Assembly (NCBI GenBank): GCA_017445585.1
Contig: JAFSTX010000065.1
Location: 48,128-112,127 of the forward strand
Direction of reading: 5' to 3'
DNA: 64,000 bases
Source: Lachnospiraceae bacterium
Lineage (GTDB): Bacteria; Bacillota; Clostridia; Lachnospirales; Lachnospiraceae
The position numbers and the translations under genes were made by a program. The notes beneath the pieces were generated by a model. The model was not told where the DNA came from. It did not search any database and was given only the letters and a program-made list of their open reading frames with translations. Within the stretch, counting starts at the first letter, position 1, and every line of letters begins with the position of its first letter. Positions 59,083 through 62,810 of the stretch are shown in pieces.

Positions 59083-59645
59083 GTGTAGGTTCCTCCCGTG
59101 AATGAGAGCATCCTTTCCCCGCCTTCATTTGCACTCTCATACAGATCGGCACCAAATAAAACGGTTCGTTTGCTCGGAAGCGGCATTTCTTCTCCATCTC
59201 TTTCTATCTTTCTCACGCTGACGCTCACACTGTAATCGGAGCTTGAAATCCTGAAGATCAGTCGCATGACTATCTTCTGACTGCTCAGACGCATGATGAA
59301 CGGAAGCTCGTATTCGTGCTCCGGTTCGGCACACAGCCTGTATAGTCCGTGCGCAAGGTATTTGTGGAACACACCTGTCCCGGCTTCCTTGGTCCGCATC
59401 TCCAGCTCGGCAAGCCCCATATTCTCAGAGTAGCAGACTTCCTTTCCGGAAATGCTGTCCGAGATCAGTCTCAGCGCCGACTCGGTAAAGAGTTTCGATT
59501 CGTATTCGTCGTTCATTTTTGTGTTTCCTCCTGATAAAGCAGATGAATTAGCTATAATCATAAGCCCCAGTGAGCTGCATATGAGCAGCATGAAAAGGGC
59601 TGCCGCGAGCGATGCGCCGCGATCTTTTCCTGTTCCTCTCATCAT
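59079..59645 (-). CDS. Minor prepilin-like protein lacking Glu+5 (PilX/GspK-class candidate, 188 aa)
   Basis: MMRGTGKDRG-ASLAAALFMLLICSSLGLMII has a hydrophobic pilin-type helix, but +5 is Ala. ATGA overlaps at both ends. Confidence 0.45.
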   Translation of the reverse strand: MMRGTGKDRGASLAAALFMLLICSSLGLMIIANSSALSGGNTKMNDEYESKLFTESALRLISDSISGKEVCYSENMGLAELEMRTKEAGTGVFHKYLAHGLYRLCAEPEHEYELPFIMRLSSQKIVMRLIFRISSSDYSVSVSVRKIERDGEEMPLPSKRTVLFGADLYESANEGGERMLSFTGGTYT

Positions 59646-60907
59646 GGCCTGACATACCTGACCCTGTAGCGAAGGCCGTTGTCCAGATCGTTTTCGAGCC
59701 AGTAATAATTCGCGAACATGTTTATTCGTCCCGATATATCCTGGTCAAAGCAAGCTCCCGATGCTCCTCCGATCTTCTGAGCAGCGCTGAAATAAAACGT
59801 ACAAGCGTATACGCCTCCCGAGGTCATCGAAACACCGCGTTTGCCCGTTATGCAGATGTCACCGTCGTTCTCAGATGTGCAGTCTCTCACCGTAAGTCCC
59901 GACAGAGTGCACTGACAGTCCTCAGCCAGAACCAGAGCGGCGCCCCTTGAGGCGGTGCAGTTCACTATAACTGCTTTTCCCGTCGTGCCGAACATCTTCC
60001 CGTCCGAATAGATTGCCCCGCCGCCTGCGTCAGAAGAATTGTGTCCGTTAGTAAGAGTGATATTGCCTATATACATGGTGCCATGATTGGCGATAAGCGT
60101 TCCGCCGCCTTCGTCAAAGCTGCCGTCAGCTCCGACGATGCTGCCGCCTCCCGCTGTATCGTCTATATCGAGCCGGTTGCGTGAAGCATTCTCTATAAGC
60201 CTCATTGGCTTTTTTGCAGAGATCGTATGCCCCTGAAGATAAAGCTTGAGCGTGATCCCTGAAGGGCTGTCAGGATTTGTGACCAGAGTGCTTCCGGACG
60301 CGGGGATGGCGATATCCTGCTCCAGATAAAAAGTCCCGCCCCTTCTGAATGCCTCAACGAGCTGACTGTATGTATAGACCCGTCCCTGCCTGAAGCCCTG
60401 AGCATACCGGACCGGGGTGATCTCGGTGCCTGCCCTGGTTTCTCCGTCCTCATTGACCCACCTGAGCGAATGCACTCCCGAATCATTCAGATAGACCTCC
60501 AGCACACAGCCTTCCACGTCGTTGTCGGAGCGGTAATACTCCCTGTCAAAGTACTCAAGGGGATCCGTAATGAGACAGAAATCCTCGCATCCTCCTTTCA
60601 TGGAAGTACCCCTGCCATAAGGCGCAGGCATCTCTCCCACGATCGAGCCTGAGGCAGCATCAAAATAGCAATAGACGCCTACATCATCCAGCATCTCTCC
60701 CCCGGGACCGCGTCCGGAAAAGATCATGTCCTCGGCCGCAGCCTTTGCGCTCCTCATGTTTGCGATATCGGCCGCCTCCCGCGAGCCTTCGAGCGAAGAG
60801 GCAAAGACAGGGATCGCTATCACTGTCAGTACAGCTATCACCGCAACCGTGATGAGCAGTTCACCTAGAGAAAAGCCGTATGCAGATGATAATCCATGTT
60901 TTCTCAT
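59642..60907 (-). CDS. Modular type IV pilin: PilA-paralogous pilin domain + C-terminal beta-helix-like (Pmp-type) module of about 250 aa
   Basis: Start MRKHGLSSAYG-FSLGELLITVAVIAVLTVIAIPVF, with AAAGGAGGAATGTTAC before the ATG. Residues 1 to about 170 parallel the 151-aa pilin, including both Cys. The remainder has AGGGSIVG, EGGGTLIANHG, DAGGGAIYSDG, NCTASRGAAL. Confidence 0.75.
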   Translation of the reverse strand: MRKHGLSSAYGFSLGELLITVAVIAVLTVIAIPVFASSLEGSREAADIANMRSAKAAAEDMIFSGRGPGGEMLDDVGVYCYFDAASGSIVGEMPAPYGRGTSMKGGCEDFCLITDPLEYFDREYYRSDNDVEGCVLEVYLNDSGVHSLRWVNEDGETRAGTEITPVRYAQGFRQGRVYTYSQLVEAFRRGGTFYLEQDIAIPASGSTLVTNPDSPSGITLKLYLQGHTISAKKPMRLIENASRNRLDIDDTAGGGSIVGADGSFDEGGGTLIANHGTMYIGNITLTNGHNSSDAGGGAIYSDGKMFGTTGKAVIVNCTASRGAALVLAEDCQCTLSGLTVRDCTSENDGDICITGKRGVSMTSGGVYACTFYFSAAQKIGGASGACFDQDISGRINMFANYYWLENDLDNGLRYRVRYVRP

Positions 60908-61130
60908 GTAACATTCCTCCTTTACTGTTTCAGCCGGCTGCTCACGCGCCCGTGCGGACTTCTGCCGCATCAGGGTGAACTTAACAGACCGGCGGTCCAT
61001 CCCGGATCCCGGCTGTAATAACATATTCATGTACCTTCCCGTTCCGGACCGAACCGGTCCGATATAAGACAGATACTTCATCTGAATCAGGTCTCGCCTG
61101 CTGTAATAAAACTGTATCACAAAGGCAGTG

Positions 61131-61189
61131 GACATAAAAGGCCGTCATCGGTGACATAATCTGCCATTTTTTATGACATAACCGGACAT
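61131..61189 (-). repeat. Phased direct repeats GACATAA (plus-strand reading) between the regulator gene and the modular pilin gene
   Basis: GACAT starts at 61131, 61153, 61175 and 61185. The first three copies are GACATAA at exactly 22-bp spacing, and the fourth (GACATTT) is 10 bp further on. Confidence 0.7.
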
Positions 61190-61205
61190 TTTCCGAACGT
61201 CTTTT

Positions 61206-61673
61206 TTATCCAAAAACCGCCTTTTTATGCGGTCTCTCGGTGTGCACCCTCTTCCTGACATTACTCATATATGCATAATTCTCATAATTTATGCTCAAAA
61301 TCGATCGTGCATTATCGATCAGTCGCTTGATCTGCCGCGTGGAATATTCCATGAGTTCCGCTGTCTCACTGATGCTCATCCCGTCTACGTAAATGTGAGT
61401 TATCACATCTATCATCTCTCTGCGCGGCAGATCTCTGATCATGAGATAGAGCACCTTTTTCATGCGGCTCTCCTCTTTTACGAGCCTCCTGATCTCCTCG
61501 TAGTATTCACGGATCTCTCTGACGTCCGCATCGGCGAAGGATGGCGCCTCGCCTCCGTATCCGCAGTGCGCCACCCCGGCTTCCCTCATAAGCGCCTTGA
61601 TATGCCTGAGTTCCCTCCCCAGGTACTCTATCCTCGAATCGACTGCCGCTATCTCATGTAACAGATCCATCAT
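61206..61673 (-). CDS. Small sigma-70-region-4-like / ArpU-RinA-like transcriptional regulator
   Basis: Start at MMDLLHEI (GGAG SD). The C-terminal HTH LPRREMIDVITHIYVDGMSISETAELMEYSTRQIKRLIDNA resembles sigma region 4, with an N-terminal coiled region. First gene of the pilus locus. Confidence 0.55.
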   Translation of the reverse strand: MMDLLHEIAAVDSRIEYLGRELRHIKALMREAGVAHCGYGGEAPSFADADVREIREYYEEIRRLVKEESRMKKVLYLMIRDLPRREMIDVITHIYVDGMSISETAELMEYSTRQIKRLIDNARSILSINYENYAYMSNVRKRVHTERPHKKAVFG

Positions 61674-61979
61674 TTTTCTCCATATCATATGTATTTCGCT
61701 TTTTCTGCAGGTCCGCCCGGAACCGGGCAAATAAAAAAGATCCGTCATCGACGGATCTGCTCAGACATATTCAGATAAATACATGGAAAACCCACATCAG
61801 TAAGAACAAATAATCTTACTGTCAAAAGCTGCCTGAAGCAGACCTGCGATATGGTGTTTTCCTGCTTTGGCCAGACATGAGAGAGGCCTCCACAACCCTG
61901 AAGCGAGTGAGAAAAGTATATCAGAACATATAAAAACCGCAAGACTTTTTTTAAAAAAAGCGGATGGGATTATTTCATT

Positions 61980-62007
61980 AAAAAAGCCGGAACCATCGGA
62001 TTCCGGC
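61980..62007 (-). terminator. Rho-independent terminator of plsC
   Basis: Minus strand has GCCGGAA-TCCGATGG-TTCCGGC followed by TTTTTT. Confidence 0.75.
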
Positions 62008-62057
62008 ATAACAAAGCAAATTCAGCTACAAGGATTACGATTCTGTATTAACCGTCT

Positions 62058-62810
62058 CTATCTGAAGGGCTCTGACACGTACTGCTCGTATGTGTGCTTT
62101 ATCTCATCCTCCACCTGCTGATGCACGGCGCGCAGACCCTCTCTGTCAAGCCCGGCGGTATCGACAGGTTTTCCGAAGACGATGATCGGCTTTGTCGGCA
62201 GAATGAGAGGCGACTGCTTTTCATAACATTCTTCCATGTGTATAAAGGTAACGGGCACGACCATGCATCCCGCTTTGTCTGCTATCTTGAAGCTTCCCTC
62301 GTGAAACTCCCCAAGCCCCTCGTGACGCACTCTGGTACCCTCGGGACAGATCCACATGGACGTTCCGTTTTTGATCTTTTCGGCGGCTGCATTTATGGAT
62401 TTCATTCCCTCTCTGGGATTCTTCCGGTCAACAAAGATGCAACCGAGCCACAGAAGCCAGATCCTGAAGGGCAGGATCGAGGCAAATTCCTTTTTGGCGA
62501 CAAAGCCGAGAGGGCGCTTCATGATCGGATAAACGCAGATCATGTCGAAAAAGCTTTTATGATTGCTGATAAAAGCTGCTGTCCCGGCCGGAACGTTCTC
62601 AAAGCCTATGACCCGCGCTTTCACGCCGAGCACGGCGGTTATGATCCGCAGTGCGGTCATGGCGATGGCGCGCACTGCCCGATCCCTTGCCTTTTTTGAA
62701 AAAAGGCCGGTTATCCACAGCAGAGGCAGTGTGACGAGACTCCAGACCGAGAAAAACAGTCCTACGAGTATATACGCGATAAACGATCTCAGGCAGGCTA
62801 TTACCTTCAT
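62058..62810 (-). CDS. plsC: 1-acyl-sn-glycerol-3-phosphate acyltransferase
   Basis: N-terminal TM, HxxxxD box (NHKSFFDM), and PEGTR box. Confidence 0.88.
   Translation of the reverse strand: MKVIACLRSFIAYILVGLFFSVWSLVTLPLLWITGLFSKKARDRAVRAIAMTALRIITAVLGVKARVIGFENVPAGTAAFISNHKSFFDMICVYPIMKRPLGFVAKKEFASILPFRIWLLWLGCIFVDRKNPREGMKSINAAAEKIKNGTSMWICPEGTRVRHEGLGEFHEGSFKIADKAGCMVVPVTFIHMEECYEKQSPLILPTKPIIVFGKPVDTAGLDREGLRAVHQQVEDEIKHTYEQYVSEPFR

Follow-up and report, generated by a model that had tools for sequence, protein, structure and literature searches.

A phage-type regulator and a phased box array at a type IV pilus operon of a rumen Lachnospiraceae bacterium

In an uncultured rumen Lachnospiraceae bacterium, a domesticated activator of the phage Ltr type and its cognate promoter probably control the type IV pili. 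The gene of this regulator, P0001, heads the type IV pilus operon, and a phased array of short boxes follows it. Motif architecture, conservation, co-occurrence with the regulator and family relationship were computed. It seems that the bacterium has co-opted a phage late-gene on-switch for a small pilus regulon, and the pilus case is best read as a variant of known Ltr-type control, with a use for type IV pili that is new in the searchable literature: the initial annotation knew of no such control module for these pili, and a search of that literature likewise found none. To our knowledge, little is known about how type IV pili are switched on in Gram-positive gut and rumen commensals.

The locus and its box array

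The window (the whole stretch of DNA that was analyzed, 64,000 nucleotides) carries the regulator gene with NAPRTase and acyltransferase genes upstream and the type IV pilus operon downstream, where the modular pilin gene is followed by minor pilins, PilB, PilC, PilA, PilD and PilMNO, down to position ~46103. No phage genes were found beside the regulator gene in the neighborhood examined, and no response-regulator gene in or beside the locus. The features of the control region are as follows.

61206..61673, minus strand: regulator gene P0001, 155 aa (ORF and translation), RBS GGAG upstream
61184..61189, minus strand: box 1, ATGTCC, distal pair, at about -85 from the predicted start; ACGTCC in the 58%-identity ortholog
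61174..61179, minus strand: box 2, ATGTCA, 10 nt past box 1
61162..61167, minus strand: box 3, ATGGCA, degenerate, 12 nt past box 2, placed by colinear comparison with G000:C44 and L002
61152..61157, minus strand: box 4, ATGTCA, 10 nt past box 3
61140..61145, minus strand: box 5, ACGGCC, degenerate, 12 nt past box 4, at about -41; ACGTCA in the C44 promoter
61130..61135, minus strand: box 6, ATGTCC, promoter-proximal, at about -31 to -26
61111..61119, minus strand: extended -10, TGa-TACAGT, beginning 10 nt past box 6
60908..61106, minus strand: putative 5' UTR of the pilus operon, with the start site predicted near 61104 solely from the position of the -10
59642..60907, minus strand: modular type IV pilin, first gene of the operon, ATG at 60907, RBS AAGGAGG

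On the plus strand, GACAT starts at 61131, 61153, 61175 and 61185, the proximal motif lying 224 nt upstream of the pilin ATG. The phased repeats pointed out in the initial annotation are real: the copies at 61131, 61153 and 61175 extend to GACATAA (TTATGTC on the minus strand) and are spaced by 22 + 22 nt, with the fourth GACAT beside them. Counted on both strands of the whole window, TTATGTC occurs 10 times against 6.4 expected, and it is the sole 7-mer of the 64 kb with three equally spaced copies at 8–40 nt; an equally spaced 7-mer triple arose in 2 of 200 order-2 Markov simulations of the window. The two-turn spacing of 22 bp that had been proposed holds for the repeat period, but the underlying spacing alternates between 10 and 12 nt: six (A/T)(T/C)GTC(C/A) boxes, the first beginning 16 nt past the regulator stop codon (61206–61208), stand at offsets 0, 10, 22, 32, 44 and 54, as pairs 10 nt apart with a pair repeat every 22 nt. 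The third and fifth boxes are degenerate; the counterpart of box 3 in the paralogous promoter on contig C44 reads ATGTCC, and the box 3 segment is kept in L002. LytTR, Spo0A and CRP-type sites were rejected as identities of the box, which their consensuses do not fit.

From the end of box 6 to the -10 hexamer is 13 nt. This hexamer is weak (4/6), and 17 nt upstream of it a -35 hexamer is absent, the sequence there being TTTTAT. In the pilus-operon 5' UTR, alignment with L002 reveals a conserved block, GGTCTGTTAAGTTCAC, at 60975–60990. A terminator scan detected no canonical terminator in the leader (60908–61106) and none between the regulator and pilin genes. A riboswitch or other known RNA in the control region (60700–62200) was dropped as a candidate, the Rfam scan at E<=10 having returned only noise, with neither a c-di-GMP riboswitch nor any other family.

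Comparison of the repeats across orthologous intergenic regions, as the initial annotation had suggested, found them conserved in six independent regulator lineages (the window, L002, L008/G006, L009/G004, L013 and L014), which were recovered via the protein and not via the box pattern. Across identities from 58% to ~25%, these lineages keep the two proximal box positions and the spacing to the extended -10, with TGn-TAnnnT at an equal offset from the proximal box in each; the number of pairs is 1, 3 or 4, and L014 has eight TGTCC boxes at offsets 0/10/22/32/44/54/65/75. Between the window and L002, the box block aligns gap-free with 54 of 61 positions identical; elsewhere, the intergenic region shows ~50% identity and numerous gaps. 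Each of the 12 bacterial modules examined has a proximal box and, exactly 10 nt past it, TGn-TAnnnT. The proximal box could also be read as a genuine -35 element (GTCACA-18-TAAAAT in L008); this reading was dropped, and the extended -10 at a fixed distance retained, because the other modules do not keep that arrangement. The array layout was found after each orthologous regulator with ample downstream sequence, down to 27% identity; for one family member, P0008 (L015), the ~300 nt of downstream sequence on hand contain no boxes.

These observations bear on whether the repeats might be accidental or neutral, or might belong to a read-through transcript as an RNA element, in either case without a function in the DNA. 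The boxes would indeed also be present in read-through RNA, because no terminator parts the regulator from the pilin gene in the window. However, the array is statistically rare, its position and spacing are kept at 25–30% protein identity, and unlinked loci with no regulator gene ahead of them also have it before a -10; we disfavor this explanation as exceedingly unlikely.

Further orthologs were sought in metagenome and genome scans, which returned only the lineages already found, and a second homology search yielded only close variants. In the regulator tree, the grouping of the pilus-linked regulators is poorly supported (23/44). G000, G004 and G006 encode both the regulator and PilB, and G007, a 100% complete genome, encodes neither.

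The regulator, its phage relatives and its leader

The initial annotation had described the regulator as phage-type (ArpU/RinA/sigma-r4-like), and this description is supported. P0001 (AF2 model, pLDDT 90.3) consists of an N-terminal helical hairpin (helices 2–36 and 46–80), a sigma-region-4-like HTH (85–131) and an extra C-terminal helix (133–145). In the profile search that had been recommended, no Pfam model exceeded its gathering threshold: Sigma70_r4_2 was matched below threshold (E 7e-5), and the DUF1492 model (PF07374) not directly, even at E<=10. However, phrog_36 was matched over residues 4–133 (E 5.6e-8), and among the ~140-aa relatives recovered by profile search 15 of 30 match DUF1492 and 28 of 30 match phrog_36. 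A search of 1.84 billion proteins gave only 5 representative clusters at E<1e-10, the next matches being ~140-aa DUF1492/phrog_36/phrog_248 proteins. Over its full length, the model resembles viral DUF1492 proteins (BFVD; TM 0.70–0.79, r.m.s.d. 2.5 Å over 134 residues). Family membership rests on profile and fold, and on these P0001 is best read as a chromosomal, domesticated member of the Ltr superfamily, in its LtrB/DUF1492-like branch. The pI is 7.9 for P0001, 9.4 for P0004, and 5.0–5.7 for the other clade members and phage relatives tested.

The C-terminal domain superimposes on sigma-E region 4 bound to -35 DNA with an r.m.s.d. of 1.7 Å over 56 residues; Foldseek returned 2h27 and 3vfz for it (1.2–1.7 Å), and a PDB profile search region 4 of SigF, FliA, SigE and SigW. 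This fold, the ECF-sigma profile matches over residues 65–135 and the -35-like appearance of the boxes would suit a minimal alternative sigma factor that replaces the housekeeping sigma and uses the boxes as its -35. We regard such a role as highly unlikely: sigma region 2 is absent from P0001, residues 1–80 being the two-helix hairpin; no sigma could be aligned over its full length (TMq <= 0.36, r.m.s.d. above 13 Å); what is conserved downstream is an extended -10 of the housekeeping type, TGn-TAnnnT; and the distance between proximal box and -10 hexamer is 13 nt instead of 16–18 nt.

The genes of the phage relatives lie between replication genes and HNH/terS, or beside terL/portal. Eight of the 11 phage relatives read have at least two direct hexamers ~10 nt apart, at or just past the stop codon, and in seven of these eight a -10 follows 13–15 nt after the hexamers. 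Their boxes are lineage-specific (TTGGCAT four times, TTTGCA twice, ATTCCA/ATTACA, GGGCA twice); in phage lineages L039 and L050 the box is identical to the ATGTCA of the pilus locus, arranged as ATGTCA-N4-ATGTCA.

This distribution also bears on whether the boxes are bound by some other factor, for example an OmpR/PhoB-type response regulator, with the sigma-4 protein serving another function. In sequence and position, the boxes do resemble the E. coli pho box. By contrast, the locus lacks a response-regulator gene; the boxes follow the sigma-4 gene in the bacterial lineages and also in the phage relatives, among which their sequence varies and their architecture is constant; none of the 57 related genomes without the regulator gene contains the module; and the spacing within pairs is 10 nt, not 11. 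We therefore consider another binding factor very unlikely.

Upstream of the regulator gene lie two further features.

61732..61908, minus strand: structured leader RNA (terminator scan; fold z-score -3.6)
61915..61942, minus strand: probable sigma-A promoter of the regulator, TTGCGG-16 nt-TATACT with TG upstream, read by eye

The leader RNA ends in an intrinsic terminator (stem 61738–61758 and a U run), and its consensus structure has 5 compensatory pairs in comparison with L002/L007. It has no match in Rfam at E<=10, and a multi-copy riboswitch class was rejected, nhmmer having found a single copy in the genome. The probable promoter scores below the consensus-scan threshold and is kept in L002 as TTGCAG-16-TATAAT; there are no boxes at it. 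The two GACAT motifs noticed earlier upstream of the regulator, at 61764 and 61874, do exist, but they are not operator boxes: they read ATGTCT, stand 110 nt apart, unpaired, unphased and with no adjacent -10, and fall within the conserved structure of the leader RNA, and their reading as autoregulatory boxes was rejected. Upstream of the regulator genes of distant orthologs, too, no box module was found. Transcription of the regulator gene would start at an ordinary promoter and run through the structured leader and its terminator, and it is probably there that the signal enters.

Unlinked promoters, predicted mechanism and leader terminators

The same promoter type recurs away from the regulator gene. 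In the genome of the window, a second site (G000:C44:1965-2042) has a colinear box array with TGaTATAAT, before the gene of P0075. A search for the strict module pattern, covering ~165 Mb in all (2 matches in the reversed control), found it five times in G004, on contigs C2, C29 and C81 and twice on C84, and two times in G006, and in none of the other related genomes without the regulator (57 of 57); the 22-nt version of the module was confined to G000, with 2 sites, and G005, with 1. A P0075-family gene stands behind the module in both G000 and G004, and in G004 a homologous modular pilin at a separate locus has its own box promoter. One congener has the module before a separate modular pilin and a P0075-family nuclease-like gene, with two copies at contig ends; in another it precedes a PD-(D/E)XK gene. 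P0075 itself has no Pfam, NCBIfam or PHROG matches, and its AF2 model (pLDDT 84) matches PD-(D/E)XK nuclease domains weakly (best E 0.02). Because the same promoter type stands at unlinked genes, the regulator would govern a small regulon.

We propose that the six phased boxes past the stop codon are binding sites of P0001, each box being a -35-like hexamer (TTGTCA/ATGTCC versus TTGACA). Within each of the three pairs the boxes are 10 bp apart, and the pairs repeat every 22 bp; all boxes therefore lie on one face of the helix, where three dimers may bind next to one another. The pair closest to the promoter, at about -41 and -31, would cover the site of the missing -35. With the regulator bound there, RNA polymerase carrying the housekeeping sigma could start at the weak extended -10, TGaTACAGT, the pilus operon then being transcribed from ~61104. 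Binding, activation, start site and stoichiometry are predictions of this proposal. The suggestion in the initial annotation that the repeats form an iterated operator for an activator gains support from sequence comparison, namely from the six lineages, the unlinked sites, the phage relatives and the Ltr precedent (PMC3753634).

Of 18 modules, 14 have a strong hairpin and U tract 10–90 nt past the -10 and before the gene, among them L008, L009, L013, L014, L031, L032, L033 and seven phage relatives. The terminator scan confirms L032, with two terminators, and L008, and in both there is no space for a further promoter between the last terminator and the RBS. At the unlinked sites, the hairpin cannot be the terminator of the regulator gene, because no regulator gene lies upstream. 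The leaders of the window and L002 are without a canonical terminator, and C44 has only a weak one. A plain activator leaves the strong terminators between promoter and gene in most related modules unexplained.

It is conceivable, although rather unlikely, that the box-bound regulator works chiefly, or also, as a processive antiterminator loaded at the promoter, a counterpart of lambda Q in function, with unmodified polymerase stopping at the leader terminator. The frequency of the hairpins, the lack of room for another promoter in L032 and L008 and the hairpins at unlinked sites argue in this direction, as do a second -10-like hexamer just past the first in several modules, which by eye resembles a sigma-dependent pause element, and weak profile matches to Phage_antitermQ (E 0.036) and phrog_79 (Q-like; E 1.4e-3). 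However, these matches are below threshold (14 bits versus a cut-off of 26 for Phage_antitermQ) and confined to the HTH region, with no significant homology to the known Q family in Pfam and PHROG scans; the leaders of the window, L002 and C44 do not fit; and the terminators could simply insulate the promoter or cut basal expression. Two published accounts of Ltr proteins, moreover, describe activation: the word stem of antitermination is absent from PMC3753634 and the word 'terminator' from PMC13123087. Tentatively, and with more doubt than confidence, sigma-4-type Ltr regulators, including the domesticated P0001, may be more than plain activators: assembled on phased -35-like hexamers where a promoter has no -35, they may make RNA polymerase resist terminators just downstream. 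The host would here have adopted such a device as the gate of its type IV pilus regulon, with the machinery, adhesin-tipped pilins and nuclease-like genes, and the device would itself be under a riboswitch-like, non-Rfam leader. If true, terminator resistance would make the system a Gram-positive analogue of lambda Q on a sigma-4 scaffold.

Under the preferred reading, a domesticated activator acting at its cognate promoter, a phage late-gene switch could be domesticated whole, as regulator and promoter, and then be copied to unlinked host genes as a regulon. The locus offers a testable cis/trans pair in which a single small protein and a defined box are matched by a few candidate target promoters. 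Independent target promoters with and without leader terminators form a natural series for distinguishing activation from read-through, a question outside the scope of PMC3753634 and PMC13123087.

Relation to known systems

The Ltr superfamily comprises RinA, ArpU, LtrA (Sigma70_r4), LtrB (DUF1492) and LtrC, activators of late genes in Gram-positive phages that act at terS promoters (Quiles-Puchalt et al. 2013, PMC3753634; Ferrer et al. 2011, PMC3152322; PMC13123087). Ltr proteins have been shown to bind direct repeats of the kind described here and were assayed with a two-plasmid reporter in S. aureus RN4220 (PMC3753634), and the repeats of the phi13 Ltr lie at -107 to -42 (PMC13123087). Like these, P0001 is a small protein, with the C-terminal part, which sets repeat specificity in the superfamily, resembling sigma region 4; its gene lies directly upstream of its predicted target promoter; and, as at Ltr/terS promoters, 2–4 or more direct repeats run from a point at or just past the stop codon to about -30/-40 of a sigma-A type -10. 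That layout is shared by its nearest relatives, the phage DUF1492 proteins, two of which also have ATGTCA as their box. Unlike phage Ltr genes, that of P0001 sits between housekeeping genes and a type IV pilus operon; the protein is predicted to act on pilus genes, pilins and nuclease-like genes instead of terS and the morphogenesis and lysis genes; its family has several unlinked candidate target promoters, and many members are not basic (pI 5–9.4); and P0001 differs from Ltr/DUF1492 proteins in its additional C-terminal helix and in the lack of a direct match to the DUF1492 model.

In lactococcal phage TP901-1, Alt is likewise described as binding four imperfect direct repeats, at -76 to -32, upstream of the sigma-A type -10 of PL (as cited in PMC13123087). 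Alt belongs to a different protein family (phrog_2198, 'Alt-like', is matched by 1 of 30 relatives of P0001), and its context is a phage.

Most modules related to that of P0001 share their layout of site, promoter and terminator with lambda Q at PR'-tR'. Lambda Q has its DNA site at a promoter that depends on the -10, and a few dozen nt further downstream lies a terminator that has to be read through. By contrast, P0001 has no significant homology to Q, the leader in the window is without a clear terminator, and pausing or loading is only proposed here.

The E. coli pho box consists of CTGTCAT direct repeats that recur every 11 bp, lie 10 bp upstream of the -10 and replace the -35. The array at the pilus operon is similar in that tandem TGTCA-like repeats about one turn apart take the place of the -35, with more boxes upstream in phase. 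However, PhoB is a phosphorylated winged-helix response regulator with an 11-bp period and no link to pili or phages, whereas P0001 is a sigma-4 protein.

Finally, in Clostridioides difficile a c-di-GMP-II riboswitch upstream of pilA1 controls type IV pili. Both organisms thus have a dedicated cis control region before the first pilin gene, and in the Lachnospiraceae bacterium the regulator also has a structured leader with a terminator. By contrast with pilA1, no Rfam match was found in this control region, and the control proposed here is exerted by a protein activator of phage ancestry.

The phased array and its conservation

On the minus strand, just after the stop codon of the gene for the 155-aa regulator P0001 (ORF 61206–61673), the sequence ...aaATGTCCggttATGTCAtaaaaaATGGCAgattATGTCAccgatgACGGCCttttATGTCCactgcctttgTGaTACAGTttt... 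holds the four GACAT motifs described in the initial annotation (plus-strand starts 61185, 61175, 61153 and 61131), three of them, as described there, GACATAA at 22-nt spacing. TTATGTC occurs 10 times in the window on both strands, three times in the array, where it is the sole 7-mer in the 64 kb with three equally spaced copies (8–40 nt); only two of 200 windows simulated with an order-2 Markov model contained any such triple. The modular pilin start at 60907, preceded by a strong RBS, lies 224 nt downstream of the last motif, again in agreement with the initial annotation. The 22-nt period is present, but when set beside the orthologous arrays and a paralogous site elsewhere in this genome it resolves into a 10/12-nt alternation: six hexamer boxes, consensus (A/T)(T/C)GTC(C/A), at offsets 0, 10, 22, 32, 44 and 54, arranged as three direct-repeat pairs with one helical turn within a pair and two turns between pairs. 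Boxes 3 (ATGGCA) and 5 (ACGGCC) are degenerate in the window, and the paralogous site carries ATGTCC and ACGTCA at these positions. Exactly 10 nt after the last box follow TGa and TACAGT, an extended −10 element, with no −35 hexamer 16–18 nt upstream. If this −10 spans −12 to −7, the proximal pair would lie near −41 and −31 and the distal box near −85.

The regulator family is very small: only five clusters reached E < 1e-10 when 1.84 billion representative proteins were searched with its profile. Its clade comprises metagenome-assembled genomes and metagenome contigs: among 61 related genomes searched, the carriers are four from one uncultured rumen Lachnospiraceae genus, and the remainder are a few metagenome contigs. 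Downstream sequence was obtained for six independent lineages.

Regulator lineages, identity to the window's regulator and number of box pairs
Window: reference; three pairs
L002 / L007 (genome G005): 58%; three pairs (L002)
L008 (genome G006): 32%; one pair
L009 (genome G004): 27%; one pair
L013: about 29%; one pair
L014: about 30%; four pairs (eight TGTCC boxes, offsets 0/10/22/32/44/54/65/75)

The repeats are conserved in these loci, with boxes after the regulator's stop codon at the same two proximal positions in all six lineages, followed in every case by 10 nt, TGn and TAnnnT (variants TAACCT, TATCAT, TATGAT, TAATAT and TATCCT). The loci were retrieved by searching with the protein, without use of the pattern, which makes the fixed box/−10 geometry an independent line of evidence. 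Window and L002 agree at 54 of 61 positions of the box block without gaps, whereas the remaining intergenic sequence is about 50% identical with many gaps, bar one short block. Minor-pilin genes lie directly downstream of the regulator in L008, L009 and L014, where contigs are long enough; a PilB-type ATPase gene follows them in L014 and is on the same contigs in G004 and G006.

The short block (GGTCTGTTAAGTT / GGTCTGTTAAGTTCAC; 60975–60990, minus strand) lies in the pilin 5′ UTR and is, besides the boxes, the sole intergenic conservation with the 58% ortholog. With its reading TGt-TAAGTT, roughly 70 nt upstream of the pilin ATG, it may represent an additional extended −10 promoter that does not depend on the boxes.

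The regulator and its phage relatives

The proposal that P0001 ends in a sigma-region-4 domain is borne out by its predicted fold and by profile searches, in which Sigma70_r4_2 (E 7e-5) and ECF sigma models (residues 65–135) matched below threshold and phrog_36 ‘transcriptional regulator’ matched residues 4–133 (E 5.6e-8). An AF2 model built from the profile-search alignment (pLDDT 90.3) contains two long antiparallel helices (2–36 and 46–80), a three-helix sigma-4-like domain (85–131) and one further helix (133–145). Comparison with the PDB gave matches through the C-terminal domain only, the best being sigma-E region 4 on −35 DNA and SigD4 (r.m.s.d. 1.2–1.7 Å over 53–56 residues); a PDB profile search also found sigma region 4 for this domain. 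The whole chain matches viral models of DUF1492 proteins (TM 0.70–0.79). A sigma factor proper was considered and ruled out, because sigma region 2 is absent.

Beyond the core clade, the profile finds proteins of about 140 aa, of which 30 were tested: 15 match DUF1492, 28 phrog_36 and 22 phrog_248 ‘transcriptional activator’. The suggested likeness to phage late activators is strengthened by the nearest outgroup proteins, which are phage-encoded and occupy the classic location of late activators (helicase, regulator, HNH, terS; VRR-NUC, regulator, terS, terL; or regulator beside terL and portal). The tree does not resolve where within the phage family the pilus-linked clade originated. At least two direct hexamers about 10 nt apart occur at or just after the stop codon in 8 of the 11 phage relatives read, and in seven of these eight, 13–15 nt separate them from a −10 hexamer (with TGn in three).

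Boxes in phage relatives
Gardnerella phage: TTGGCAT, four copies
L049: TTTGCA, two copies
L040: TTGCA, two copies
Ruminococcus phage: ATTCCA/ATTACA
L044: GGGCA, two copies
L039 and L050: ATGTCA-N4-ATGTCA, identical to the window's box

A constant architecture and gene linkage combined with a box that varies by lineage is as expected for a protein and its own binding site.

Unlinked modules and downstream terminators

Only two sites in the window's own genome, G000, combine four or more boxes in 80 nt with the proximal-box/−10 geometry: this locus and a second one (G000:C44:1965–2042, minus strand), which has an array colinear with the window's, ends in TGaTATAAT and precedes the gene for P0075. 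Matches to the strict pattern TGTCM-N5-TGTCM-N10-TGnTAnnnT number five in G004, two in G006 and none in the rest of the 61 related genomes (reversed control, two matches); its 22-nt version is confined to G000, with two sites, and G005, with one.

Strict sites in G004 and G006
G004: before the pilus operon
G004: at a separate locus, before a modular pilin of 441 aa that carries BspA-type LRRs
G004: before a P0075-family gene (L034)
G004, two sites: copies at contig ends
G006, second site: before a PD-(D/E)XK ‘transposase’ gene

No module sites were found in the regulator-less genomes of the genus, one of which, the complete genome G007, also lacks PilB. Confinement of the sites to regulator-bearing genomes implies a trans-acting factor, and the regulator gene is the sole candidate that always travels with them.

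P0075 (269 aa; L018 on G000:C44, 886–1695, minus strand, 3′ of the second box promoter) belongs to a family with five copies in G000 and members in seven of the eight genomes of the genus. It matches nothing in Pfam, NCBIfam or PHROG, contains a conserved motif RSKSE...PDF...WEH and resembles PD-(D/E)XK nucleases only weakly in fold (best E 0.02). Just downstream (L018, 571–864), a 52-nt unit is repeated 5.7 times in tandem; each unit contains a CAGGCCTG...CAGGCCTG hairpin and then a T run on the strand of the P0075 gene. The single-pair modules L029–L035 of G004 and G006 have their 10-nt box-to-−10 spacer within a conserved palindrome, CACAAA-N2-TTTGTG, that a second protein might recognize and that is absent from the window's promoter. 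Near-identical box promoters and leaders with one or two terminator hairpins recur (L031 1758–2567, L033 and L035); their location before the PDDEXK_2 PD-(D/E)XK ‘transposase’ gene in G006 and at two G004 contig ends suggests a multi-copy element that carries the module or is driven by it.

Of 18 modules examined, 14 place a strong hairpin and U tract downstream of the −10 but ahead of the gene. Among these 14 are the modules of the pilus operons in G004, G006, L013 and L014, that of the separate modular pilin and those of seven phage relatives, which have this promoter–terminator–gene arrangement in common with the bacterial loci.

Terminators after the box promoter
L008, 1299–1326: one, confirmed by terminator scan
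L032, 1545–1605: two, confirmed by terminator scan
Also L009, L013, L014, L031, L033 and phage loci L039–L046

A promoter running straight into a terminator is unexplained by a plain activator and would be explained by the principal, though less likely, alternative, in which the regulator, by analogy with lambda Q, is a promoter-loaded antiterminator; L008 and L032 moreover leave no room for a further promoter between terminator and RBS. This reading fits the window's locus less well, since neither the window nor its closest ortholog shows a clear leader terminator.

Proposed mechanism and relation to known systems

For activation in the window, regulator dimers, presumably formed through the N-terminal hairpin, would bind the −35-like hexamer pairs on the same face of the DNA. 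As many as three dimers would be aligned, the proximal one covering the missing −35 and recruiting or stabilizing sigma-A holoenzyme at the extended −10; the predicted transcript, with its 5′ end near 61104, would comprise a leader of roughly 200 nt followed by the pilin gene and the pilus operon. Since no terminator separates regulator gene and operon in the window, some read-through from the regulator's own promoter may also occur. That promoter has no boxes. The two upstream GACAT motifs of the initial annotation are not supported as operator sites.

Features upstream of the regulator gene
61942–61915, minus: probable sigma-A promoter of the regulator, TTGCGG-16-TATACT
61732–61908, minus: structured leader, about 180 nt, between this promoter and the regulator gene
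61738–61758, minus: intrinsic terminator ending the leader, 65 nt before the regulator ATG

The leader (fold z-score −3.6) is single copy in the genome, has no Rfam match and shows five compensatory changes/pairs against the 58% ortholog, in which a variable hairpin is swapped for a different one. As a candidate riboswitch or attenuator, it may control the pilus regulator: a folded, conserved leader with a terminator is where an environmental signal would be expected to act, and the regulator would relay that signal to the pilus regulon. Complementarity of 90% exists between CAGAUCCGUC, the 5′ arm of this terminator, and GAUGGAUCUG, the regulator start-codon region (window 61662–61671 and 61750–61759); it is partly kept in the ortholog and may be a coincidence of Met-Asp codons.

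Searchable literature yielded no such control module for type IV pili, consistent with the initial annotation, and no pilus connection for DUF1492; other pilus-link searches were likewise empty. The dedicated activator with an iterated operator proposed there gains support from the conserved layout, the unlinked modules and the phage relatives; binding, activation and the start site are predictions. Quiles-Puchalt et al. defined the Ltr superfamily of phage late transcriptional activators as RinA, ArpU, LtrA (Sigma70_r4), LtrB (DUF1492) and LtrC; purified ArpU and LtrC bind repeats, and an LtrB member of an S. suis prophage activates terS expression (PMC3753634). Ltr repeats span −107 to −42 in phi13, and Alt repeats −76 to −32 in TP901-1 (PMC13123087). 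The window's module agrees with this superfamily in every respect except genomic context and targets: by these likenesses, the switch belongs to a known kind, that of phage Ltr activators with direct-repeat promoters, here in a new role as predicted chromosomal regulator of a type IV pilus regulon, a role that belongs to a narrow, uncultured rumen lineage.
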